Under the pieces are notes generated by a model. That model made no database searches and was not told where the DNA came from. It saw nothing but the letters and a program-made list of their open reading frames with translations. Both the position numbers and the translations under genes were made by a program. From sequence record MH051917: a stretch of 64,000 bases of DNA; one strand, written 5' to 3'. This DNA is from Enterobacteria phage vB_EcoM_IME341. Below are positions 41,243-43,053 of the stretch, in pieces. Position 1 is the stretch's first letter. Each line of letters starts with the position of its first letter.

Positions 41243-41319
41243 GGCCCTGTAGCTCAATGGTTAGCAGCAGTCCCCTCATAAGGGAAAGGTTACCAGTTCA
41301 AATCTGGTCTGGGTCACCA
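41243..41319 (+). tRNA. tRNA with CAT anticodon (Met, or Ile2 if lysidine-modified)
   Basis: cloverleaf folded by hand: T-arm ACCAG-TTCAAAT-CTGGT, anticodon loop CTCATAA, 3' CCA encoded; one acceptor mismatch. Confidence 0.65.
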
Positions 41320-41387
41320 ACTTTGATTAGGTAGAGCAGTCAACTTCTCCATGAATAAATATCTATATAAAATTCATGGAGAAAATT

Positions 41388-42047
41388 ATGCTTTGCCAAT
41401 ATTGTTCTAAAGAATGTAAAAACTTAAATTCACTAAAGCAACATGAAAAACGGTGCAAATCTAACCCAAATGGATTAGATATGAGCGGCCCTAATAACCC
41501 TCGTTTCGGTCTTAAAGGTGTCAATCAATTTACAAAAGCCAAAGAACTAGGTAAAGAAATAAAGGTTTCTGATAAAACCAGAGAAAAACTTAGAAAAGCC
41601 AATACAGGATATGTATGGTCTAATGAACGCAAAGAAGCACATTCTAAAAGAATGCGGCAAGCTGTTCTTGATAATCCTGATTCATATTCTGCTTCTAATG
41701 TTTCTGGTCGAGTAAAAACATATGAGTTTGACGGATTTAAATTTAAAGGGACTTGGGAATTAAAAGTTGCTAAGTTTTTAAAAGAACACAATATCAAATA
41801 TACTAATGAAATAAAGCCAATTCCTTACGAATGGGAAGGTTCAGAACATCTCTATTTTCCTGATTTTTATTTACCCACTTATGATTTTTATATAGAAGTC
41901 AAAGGATATAAAAGAGATAGAGACCTTTGTAAATGGAAAGCTTTAGAAAATTTGATAGTTTTAGAAAAAGATGAGATTTCCGATTTGTCTTGTCTTTTAA
42001 ATAAATTACGTCCCGCTGGTGTAATGGATAGCATACGATCCTTCTAA
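41388..42047 (+). CDS. free-standing homing-endonuclease-like protein: CxxC...HxxxxC zinc finger, NUMOD-like linker, PD-(D/E)xK domain related to gp4
   Basis: ATG 41388 after GGAGA; C-terminal YFPDFYLPTYDFYIEVKG parallels gp4 YFMDF...FEVK; lies in tRNA cluster like T4 segB. Confidence 0.55.
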   Translation: MLCQYCSKECKNLNSLKQHEKRCKSNPNGLDMSGPNNPRFGLKGVNQFTKAKELGKEIKVSDKTREKLRKANTGYVWSNERKEAHSKRMRQAVLDNPDSYSASNVSGRVKTYEFDGFKFKGTWELKVAKFLKEHNIKYTNEIKPIPYEWEGSEHLYFPDFYLPTYDFYIEVKGYKRDRDLCKWKALENLIVLEKDEISDLSCLLNKLRPAGVMDSIRSF

Positions 42048-42084
42048 GTTTGCGGTCCTGGTTCGATCCCAGGGCGGGATACCA
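42010..42084 (+). tRNA. tRNA-Arg (TCT anticodon)
   Basis: acceptor GTCCCGC/GCGGGAT, T-arm CCTGG-TTCGATC-CCAGG, anticodon loop CTTCTAA, CCA encoded; overlaps 3' end of the preceding ORF. Confidence 0.7.
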
Positions 42085-42314
42085 AATGAAGACTATTATA
42101 TAGTCAAGCCGTCGTATGAAGACTGATTGCCAGCATTCACCGGCGCAACAAACAAGAAACCGGGTCGCTACCGGTAAGTCGTCGGACTGAAGTTCTCTGG
42201 AGTATAGTTCCTCCCACAGTTGTACTGTGTTCTGGTTCTTTACTATCACAGCTGAAACGGCGCACCGAACACTTGCCTAGCAGGTGGAACCCCGACAAGG
42301 TTGCCGCAAGGCAT
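42085..42314 (+). ncRNA. GC-rich non-coding segment downstream of tRNA-Arg; candidate stable RNA (cf. T4 species 1 and 2 RNAs)
   Basis: no ORF, GC clearly above the window background, ends at an intrinsic terminator; inference only. Confidence 0.3.
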
Positions 42315-42342
42315 AGCCCCTTCCGAAAGGTTGGGGCTTTTT
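42315..42342 (+). terminator. intrinsic terminator (AGCCCCTTCC-GAAA-GGTTGGGGCT + T5)
   Basis: GNRA-loop hairpin and U-run; near-identical copy at 42963. Confidence 0.7.
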
Positions 42343-42383
42343 GGCATAATAAATAGATAAGTTAATTAACTTAGGAAATAATA

Positions 42384-42872: not shown

Positions 42873-42962
42873 GGTTAACTTAGAGAAATATATGAAACTT
42901 TTAAAATAAAGCTATGTTAGCCTTCCACATAAACCCATTCCGGTTCTACAAGAACTGATTCT

Positions 42963-42992
42963 AGGCCCTTCCGAAAGGTTGGGCCTTTTTTG
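42963..42992 (+). terminator. intrinsic terminator, direct repeat of 42315
   Basis: AGGCCCTTCC-GAAA-GGTTGGGCCT + T6. Confidence 0.7.
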
Positions 42993-43014
42993 TTTCTAAA
43001 AGTTTAAAAAAGTT

Positions 43015-43053
43015 GTTTACACCTCCTTTAAACATGATACTATAGACCTATCA
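43015..43053 (+). promoter_or_regulatory. early promoter cassette; spacer CCTCCTT complementary to downstream SD
   Basis: GTTTAC 43015-20; TACTAT 43038-43; SD AAGGAGA 43067-73. Confidence 0.65.

Follow-up and report, generated by a model that had tools for sequence, protein, structure and literature searches.

A predicted orthologue of the T4 stable RNA rnaD, with a conserved core and an exchangeable apical hairpin, downstream of tRNA-Arg in Enterobacteria phage vB_EcoM_IME341

We focused on a noncoding island in Enterobacteria phage vB_EcoM_IME341 (sequence record MH051917), located directly downstream of a tRNA-Arg gene in a stretch of 64,000 nucleotides (nt) that is referred to as the window here. 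The DNA from 42085 to 42345 is noncoding, reads on the tRNA strand and has ∼50% G+C versus ∼30% in its flanks; counted per 100 nt, the G+C fraction is 0.45 to 0.57 across 42000-42349 versus 0.23 to 0.36 in most flanking intervals. A preliminary description of the island had already recorded the lack of a plausible open reading frame (ORF), the elevated G+C content and a number of short complementary segments. All of these hold, the complementary segments being recovered by the folds. The ORFs present are mechanical, namely, a 27-amino-acid TTG ORF on the plus strand and ORFs of 33, 53, and 116 amino acids on the minus strand, the longest of which extends antisense through tRNA-Arg. A coding reading was rejected, given that there is no credible ORF and that annotated relatives either call no gene here or annotate rnaD/rnaC. 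The RNA feature extends from 42085 to ∼42342 and is longer than initially described; the intrinsic terminator that had been assigned to the 3′ end of the island is real, but it lies just beyond the end of 42314 given at the time. The island is composed of three modules, namely, a mini element, an rnaD unit, and a trailer with its terminator (Table 1). The closest records to the window are the Dhakavirus genomes IME540 and ABTNLsp5.

rnaD is a small stable RNA discovered in phage T4 in the 1970s. In the GenBank record of T4T, from which we took the mature ends of T4 rnaD, the two miscellaneous RNAs right after tRNA-Arg are rnaD (species 2 RNA, 119 nt) and rnaC (species 1 RNA, 139 nt). Both have been known since the early work on T4 tRNAs. 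RNAC and RNAD have been observed as late RNAs, and an RNAC probe served for a Northern blot (PMC9697503); reviews still give their roles as unknown (PMC3014915; also PMC9697503). Blast comparison of the window with T4 rnaD yielded matches to the 5′ end (42155-42195, 41 nt, 97.6% identity) and to the 3′ end (42245-42266, 22 nt, 95.5%), separated by ∼50 nt unrelated to T4. The rnaD unit is also the single match of covariance model R1 in the window, with 120.5 bits and an E value of 1.5e-31. Its placement is as in T4, on the tRNA strand, after tRNA-Arg(UCU) and before a shared trailer/terminator and the e.8-e.6 genes, and differs only by the 66-nt mini element inserted after tRNA-Arg. By these likenesses, to which near-identical ends and the helices P1 to P4 described below are added, 42150-42267 is predicted to be the orthologue of T4 rnaD, from which it differs in having a T2-type center (∼47 nt) and a tail of ACCG versus ACCA in T4.

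rnaC, in contrast, has no match in the whole 64,000-nt window, either by blast or in alignment A1. The earlier suggestion that the island could correspond to the two stable RNAs of T4 thus stands for rnaD and fails for rnaC, and the island is a composite. The junction left by the rnaC deletion is clean (GGCGCAC / CGAACACUUGCC), and across phages GGCGCAC is joined to C[G/A]AACACUUGCC. rnaC is missing here (42263-42266 versus L001:2700-2850), in IME540 and in five further loci (L005, L011, L012, L015, and L041), while it is kept in the otherwise very similar ABTNLsp5 and in QL01-type phages; VR26-type phages lack both RNAs. In agreement with the failure to match a known ribozyme core by eye, an Rfam scan found no family at or above the gathering threshold except tRNAs in the window or in the T4, Phapecoctavirus, and Certrevirus homologues, and permissive thresholds likewise gave tRNAs alone. 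No ribozyme or riboswitch family matches. rnaD is not a tRNA, a ribozyme, or a member of any Rfam family, and the unit of the window fits the T4 rnaD family by each feature tested here.

The fold of the rnaD unit was derived with RNAalifold from the T4-like set, together with minimum-free-energy folds of single members, and covariation was counted over the 18 pairs of P1 to P4 in an alignment of 31 distinct homologues (alignment A3). Here, 96.2% of the cells pair, compared with a mean of 86.2% for column shuffles, none of which reached the observed value in 500 trials, a control that overstates significance given that the homologues are related. Sliding the partners by one to three columns leaves 33 to 50% paired, and 7 of the 18 pairs have changed on both sides. 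The closing pair of P1 is A-U, G-U, or G-C, with C-G, A-U, or G-C further inside, the helix reading ACCGG/CCGGU, GCCGG/CCGGC, ACAGG/CCUGU, GCGAG/CUCGC, or AGGGU/ACCCU depending on the lineage; in Certrevirus and in the T4-like contig L037, the P1 loop is enlarged by a structured insertion of 40 to 50 nt with compensatory changes of its own. The five-pair core of P2 is kept in all 31 sequences, with pair 42184-42258 being G-C in the T4-like phages and C-G in the Phapecoctavirus and Certrevirus sequences (8 of 8). Three of the four P3 pairs vary on both sides (pair 1, U-A, A-U, or U-G; pair 3, U.G, G-C, C-G, or U-A; pair 4, U-A or C-G). Invariant and frequent U.G pairs are compatible with the plus strand alone. 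The opposite strand was rejected, since these pairs would turn into A.C and the rnaD-unit fold has a z score of 0.07. Also rejected was a local hairpin AGUC-GUCG-GACU in place of P2, which is broken by the Phapecoctavirus and Certrevirus changes that P2 compensates. The support for the structure comes from covariation and not from folding energy. The comparison across related phages that the preliminary description had proposed supports a single fold for the rnaD family, P1 to P4 with a swappable apical hairpin.

The outer end of P2 can be drawn in two registers. The outer pairs given by RNAalifold, U42179-A42264 and G42178-C42265, suffer four violations and show no covariation, whereas the alternative G42178-C42263, with position 42179 (U, C, or A) bulged, fits 31 of 31 sequences and leaves a 3′ tail of ACC. 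Across the family, the tail after P2 is ACCA in T4 rnaD and in the mini element of IME540, ACC or AC in most others, and ACC(G) in the window. P2 with ACC(A) appears to resemble the form of a tRNA 3′ end, i.e., a discriminator followed by a CCA that is complete or repairable. Between P2 and P3, the columns of the internal loop are invariant or purine-only in alignment A3, and the purines on the P2 side switch jointly from G...A to A...G between lineages. L037 combines the A...G purines with the T4-type 82-164 pair, so that the switch is independent of the neighboring Watson-Crick pair. Such a joint switch is what would be expected of a purine-purine pair and suggests tandem G.A pairs. The GA/GA next to P3 may likewise resemble the tandem sheared pairs after the bulge of a kink-turn: in sequence pattern alone, both consist of a helix, 3 to 4 unpaired nt, G-A opposite G-A, and a helix, but rnaD has two extra nt on the nonbulged strand.

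Contrary to this core, the centers of T4-like rnaD fall into at least three unrelated types, A (T4), B (T2 and the window), and C (JS98-like), all of which form hairpins and assort independently of the remainder of the locus. The core of type B consists of UUCC(UCC), a 5- to 6-bp hairpin, and (G)UUCU(G/A)G. This core is present in T2-type phages, Phapecoctavirus, POP18/PBES02, and POP15, where the stems covary (CACAGU/ACUGUG versus CCAUG/CAUGG), and once more in a separate noncoding stretch of L037. Given that type B recurs across phage groups but is absent from T4, it is a portable module that lies outside the invariant core.

Blastn retrieved the rnaD unit from 744 phage records, and among T4-like phages its 5′ 47 nt and 3′ 25 nt are nearly invariant. 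Outside Straboviridae, homologues were reached through weak blast matches: seven Phapecoctavirus records carry an rnaD-like unit, as do Certrevirus and relatives (POP15/17/18, PBES02, CR3, CR8, KaOmega, and F1M1E), and a divergent rnaD-like element is found in L037. Covariance model R2, which was built from T4-like sequences alone, scores the Phapecoctavirus units at 58 to 68 bits, the Certrevirus units at 32 to 47 bits, and that of L037 at 29 bits (E from 5e-6 to 2e-16). Since the seed of R2 is free of Phapecoctavirus and Certrevirus sequences and yet detects them, the kinship is independent of their placement in the seed alignment. In both groups, the units lie on the tRNA strand, among tRNA genes, a few nt after the CCA of one tRNA, and in most records 8 to 10 nt upstream of the next. 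A host origin and sequence-level mimicry were rejected, since a blastn search of 5,426 E. coli genomes gave no match. Exact-motif scans of IMG/VR and of metagenome contigs gave 12 loci each, several of which are chance matches in G+C-rich DNA; the apical motif has 0 matches in 185,579 bacterial and archaeal genomes and 1 in IMG/VR, and loci retrieved via the neighboring e.6 protein are close relatives alone. The extension to Phapecoctavirus and Certrevirus, the covariation-supported fold, and the mini element appear to be without earlier report in the literature searched, outside of which lie the early T4 papers.

Several of these loci carry further structured sequences. In L037, an IMG/VR contig (172-770), ∼300 nt more of hairpin-rich noncoding DNA lie between the rnaD-like unit and tRNA-Met and hold another copy of the type-B motif (GUUCCCACAGUACGCUGUGUUCU, ∼376-398), and a diverged rnaC-like unit follows tRNA-Met (∼550-765). 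L036 and L038 have an rnaC-like unit and no rnaD within the sequence examined. In two Phapecoctavirus records (L048:630-710 and L044:∼820-900), the rnaD-like unit is directly preceded by a sequence shaped like a tRNA, which has an acceptor of 7 bp (GGACUUG/CGAGUCC), a T-arm, an encoded CCA, and an aberrant anticodon region; this sequence is partly duplicated in L044 and is called by neither ARAGORN nor Rfam in either record.

The mini element (42090-42155) has no T4 counterpart and is found in 25 phage records, all of them Dhakavirus, at 97.5 to 98.8% identity. Its layout repeats P1, linker, and P2 of rnaD, with the P2 core CGUCG/CGGCG and the same U.G pair, and within the 64 kb the motif pair CGTCG...CGGCGCA occurs solely in the mini element and in rnaD (expected, 0.01 and 0.07). 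Model R1 spans the mini element from end to end, though via P1 and P2 alone and with a weak score of 7.7 bits. Sequence-level homology to rnaD was rejected, since the global alignment lacks significance, its score being reached by 47 of 500 shuffles. The 25 copies are near-identical, which precludes a covariation signal, and the few differences fall in loops or in the tail. Given the P2 motif and the architecture that it has in common with rnaD, together with the weak model alignment, the mini element is a probable internally deleted tandem duplicate, i.e., a truncated paralogue, of rnaD. In VR26 (L043:∼1230-1260), GGUCGUAUUCACGGCGCACCC is retained immediately ahead of the trailer, within the terminal part of an annotated ORF; it resembles a collapsed mini element (GUCGUAU...UUCACCGGCGCA) and may be a deletion relic.

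Among 19 distinct trailers, the invariant block has no substitutions except in the loop of hairpin T1, and the trailer is retained with or without upstream rnaC/rnaD, including in VR26-type phages. The stretch 42265-42345 matches the T4 sequence that follows rnaC, terminator included. Hairpin T2 is ACC-CUA-GGU in other phages and missing from VR26-type phages. In the terminator, one pair changes from C-G to G-C between phages, and the stem is perfect in T4; a simple scan had missed it in the window because of the internal UU/UU mismatch in the stem. The layout of the trailer, in which hairpins and a conserved single-stranded stretch are followed by a U-tailed terminator, would fit an Hfq-type small RNA (sRNA), and the trailer may be a separate 3′-derived RNA, a processing platform, or a recombination anchor. 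Its unpaired invariant AACCCCGACAAGGUU (42288-42302) is almost a copy of AGCCCCGACCGAAAGGUU, which forms the 5′ arm and loop of the terminator in T4 (compare 42315-42333), and could pair alternatively with the 3′ arm of the terminator.

Table 1. Features of the rnaD locus in the window (positions in the 64,000-nt stretch)
Feature	Position	Strand	Sequence or detail	Basis
tRNA-Met	41243-41319	+		ARAGORN, Rfam
tRNA-Arg	42010-42084	+	Anticodon UCU; encoded CCA end	ARAGORN; 48.8 bits with the Rfam tRNA model; no difference from T4 tRNA-Arg in alignment A1
Mini element	42085-42154	+	66 nt; ends in A-rich tail AACAAACA	
Mini element P1′	42091-42096 / 42100-42105	+	6 bp, then AA linker	
Mini element P2′	42108-42114 / 42141-42146	+	GCCGUCG / CGGCGC; encloses short hairpin	
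rnaD (predicted orthologue)	42150-42267	+	Includes purine-rich leader AAACAAGAA and 3′ ACCG	Blast, alignment A1, model R1, T4T annotation
rnaD P1 hairpin	42159-42175	+	ACCGG 42159-42163 / CCGGU 42171-42175; 7-nt loop GUCGCUA	RNAalifold, pair counts
rnaD P1-P2 linker	Between 42175 and 42178	+	AA	
rnaD P2	42178-42184 / 42258-42263	+	GUCGUCG / CGGCGC	RNAalifold, pair counts
rnaD J2/3 internal-loop strand	42185-42190	+	GACUGA (consensus RACNGA), opposite GAAA 42254-42257 (consensus GA[A/C][A/G])	
rnaD P3	42191-42194 / 42250-42253	+	AGUU / AGCU	Pair counts
rnaD bulge	Between P3 and P4 5′ strands	+	3 nt	
rnaD P4	42198-42199 / 42247-42248	+	UG / CA; closes apical domain 42200-42246	
Apical helix	42204-42208 / 42242-42246	+	AUAGU / ACUAU	
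Apical internal loop	Within 42200-42246	+	Pyrimidine-rich, UCCUCC / UUCUGGUUCUUU	
Apical hairpin	42215-42220 / 42224-42229	+	CACAGU / ACUGUG	
rnaD 3′ end	42254-42266	+	J3/2 GAAA; P2 3′ strand CGGCGC 42258-42263; tail ACC 42264-42266	
Trailer	42265-42314	+		Alignment of 19 distinct trailers; RNAalifold on 11
Trailer hairpin T1	42270-42276 / 42280-42286	+	In invariant block AACACUUGCC..GCAGGUGGAACCCCGACAAGG	
Trailer small hairpin	42288-42291 / 42299-42302	+	AACC / GGUU	
Trailer hairpin T2	42303-42312	+	GCC-GCAA-GGC	
Intrinsic terminator	42315-42342	+	Stem 42315-42338, AGCCCC-UU-CC GAAA GG-UU-GGGGCU, plus U-run	Folds
Next gene downstream	Start 42384			

These features lead us to read the island as the distal end of a tRNA transcription unit, with an rnaD orthologue, a mini rnaD-like unit upstream of it, and a trailer and terminator downstream, at a probability of about 0.85. 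tRNA-Arg probably shares a transcript with the downstream RNAs, and rnaD would be cotranscribed with tRNA-Met and tRNA-Arg up to the terminator at 42342. Given that its gene is embedded among tRNA genes, rnaD would be exposed to the host tRNA maturation enzymes, which could free it by endonucleolytic cuts in the A-rich spacers (CCA/AAUGAAG and GCAAC/AAACAAGAAAC), with its 3′ end trimmed back to P2 and CCA repaired where needed; where a tRNA directly follows an rnaD-like unit, RNase P would cut at the 5′ end of this tRNA. The product is expected to accumulate as a stable species of ∼110 to 120 nt, like T4 rnaD, stabilized by its closed helix and its tRNA-like end, with P2 and ACC(A) mimicking a tRNA acceptor end and P1 blocking the 5′ side. 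Non-tRNA substrates of RNase P include pre-4.5S RNA, the M3 RNA of phage phi80, and the C4 RNA of P1/P7 (PMC11143913). Acceptor minihelices and such substrates may share with rnaD a terminal helix of 6 to 7 pairs followed by unpaired ACC(A), whereas rnaD has neither a cloverleaf nor a T-loop and apparently retains its 5′ hairpin, T4 rnaD being annotated at 119 nt. rnaC, the sister RNA in the T4 unit, also has a 5′ hairpin extension followed by a helix with a tRNA-like 3′ terminus, but it has no sequence homology to rnaD and carries a true T-arm (GGUUCGAAUCC), an acceptor, and a weak tRNA-model match of 17.5 bits.

Regarding function, our leading guess is that rnaD acts in trans by binding a tRNA-directed factor, such as a host defense nuclease or a processing enzyme, which is possible but has the odds against it. 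In that case, the factor would recognize the conserved P2 and internal loop, with the apical domain serving as a module specific to the host. When the T4-like phage BW-1 adapted to E. coli ECOR34, a semipermissive host, one single-nucleotide polymorphism (SNP) in rnaD was the sole mutation common to three lines, and virulence (RBG) rose from 0.17 to 0.98 (PMC12685909). Overall, we favor a host-specific accessory role of rnaD, possibly in counterdefense, because of the strict association with tRNA clusters in three phage groups, the acceptor-like end with a blocked 5′ side, the conserved loop with the look of a recognition site, the exchange of apical cassettes, the presence/absence polymorphism in close relatives, and the BW-1 SNP. 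A paper on SegB (PMC13096335), consulted regarding an antidefense role of the region, deals with tRNA-Tyr, gp49.2, and TifA and not with rnaD.

Several observations weigh against this picture, both in its structural and in its functional part. By folding energy, the rnaD unit does not stand out (z = −0.85, compared with −2.4 for both the mini element and the trailer), most core columns are invariant, several pairs, including the outer P2 register, show no covariation signal, and the relatedness of the homologues mentioned above bears on the shuffle control. The likeness to an acceptor end rests on six pairs and a short tail; ARAGORN finds tRNA-Met and tRNA-Arg alone, and the Rfam tRNA models have no match in 42085-42345 at E ≤ 10, so a cloverleaf is not seen. 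A kink like that of a K-turn in the internal loop, which is possible, would contradict a straight acceptor/T-stem mimic. rnaD is missing from close relatives such as VR26 and is therefore dispensable. Stable accumulation is reported for T4 only, and the position of the BW-1 SNP is not mappable onto the fold, since no accession is given.

The main alternative to binding of a tRNA-directed factor, which we consider rather unlikely, is that rnaD and/or the trailer act by base pairing as a regulatory RNA or sponge, targeting host or phage transcripts through the apical UCCUCC, complementary to the Shine-Dalgarno sequence GGAGG, or through the single-stranded GGAACCCCGACAAGG of the trailer. A precedent is 3′ETS-leuZ, a spacer sponge RNA of an E. 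coli tRNA operon that is processed from a tRNA precursor beside the operon terminator and pairs with Hfq-dependent sRNAs; a similar origin in a tRNA precursor is proposed for rnaD, but the two have no similarity in sequence or structure. The type-B apical loop, which is conserved in three phage groups, contains CCUCC, and the sRNA-like layout of the trailer, with its terminator and U-tail, would suit such a role. However, in T4 and many relatives the apical domain is swapped for unrelated hairpins without CCUCC, while the invariant part is the core of P2 and internal loop; moreover, blastn gives no similarity to E. coli sequences.

It is improbable that the island works in cis only, as a structured 3′ spacer with a terminator that influences how the tRNA transcript is processed, stabilized, or terminated and gives no discrete trans product. 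The location between the last tRNA and the terminator, a trailer that is conserved regardless of rnaD/rnaC and kept in VR26 without rnaD, and the reuse of the terminator as a module, another copy of which lies at 42963-42993, would fit this explanation. On the other hand, in T4 the homologue is a stable RNA that accumulates (PMC9697503 and PMC3014915), the Phapecoctavirus and Certrevirus units lie between tRNAs with no terminator nearby, indicating that their conservation is not tied to termination, and a conserved internal loop with compensated helices exceeds the needs of a spacer. Least probable of all is an effect at the DNA level, with invariant arms and a swappable center serving as substrates for recombination or homing (homing-endonuclease genes, repeated terminators) and the RNA being a neutral passenger or a decayed tRNA: the locus is indeed highly mosaic (center type, rnaC, mini element, and hairpin T2 assort independently in close relatives), homing-endonuclease genes flank it, and SegB cleaves within tRNA genes and drives exchange of the region (PMC2330249), but compensatory changes that keep P1, P2, and P3 paired in three phage groups point to selection for the structure of the RNA, and no tRNA model matches the rnaD unit. 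Since recombination explains the mosaic but not the covariation, the DNA-level and RNA readings can coexist.

Going beyond binding of a tRNA-directed factor by the rnaD of the window, we speculate that rnaD-type RNAs form an unrecognized class across phage families (Tevenvirinae, Phapecoctavirus, and Certrevirus) of 5′-blocked acceptor-end decoys or inhibitors of a host tRNA-directed factor, e.g., a tRNA-cleaving defense nuclease or a maturation enzyme, in which an arms race would adapt the apical cassette to the host, and P1 + P2, as found in the mini element, would suffice as the minimal active core; as a whole, this idea is doubtful. GOLLD and ROOL are large phage noncoding RNAs of 500 to 800 nt with Rfam models, often located beside tRNA genes, whose function is unknown. 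rnaD shares with them the association with tRNA clusters, but it has ∼115 nt, and no GOLLD or ROOL match was found here with Rfam. An orthologue of rnaD in a T4-like phage is unsurprising alone; the comparison, however, makes the old question of its function easier to test, as it provides a defined conserved core (P2 and the purine-rich loop) and evidence for a family that extends to tRNA clusters in two unrelated groups of large phages of enterobacteria. The natural minimal version (P1 + P2) and the natural apical swaps suggest mutants to build.

Additionally, we observed several features in the DNA around the island. The consensus of T4 late promoters is TATAAATA; between the terminator and the next ORF (42346-42383), CATAATAAATAGA resembles it, with one mismatch. 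Upstream of the island, between tRNA-Met and tRNA-Arg, the window has an ORF of 223 amino acids (41376-42047, plus strand), the last 38 nt of which overlap the 5′ start of tRNA-Arg. The site is occupied in T4 and IME540 by segB, a gene for a GIY-YIG homing endonuclease. The protein of the 223-amino-acid ORF differs from SegB, has an N-terminal CxxC...HxxxC motif, and scores 24.3 bits with Phage_endo_I, below the cutoff of 29.1; it is probably another free-standing homing endonuclease. The second copy of the terminator, on the plus strand, has the GGCCC...GGGCC allele and is followed by a σ70-like promoter (TTTACA-16-TACTAT, 43016-43043). Upstream of it lies ATGAAACTTTTAAAATAA (42893-42910), a remnant of five codons from the gene located after this terminator in IME540. 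The region has the appearance of a scar left by recombination at a terminator-promoter module that is used repeatedly, as described under the name PeSL (PMC4122927).

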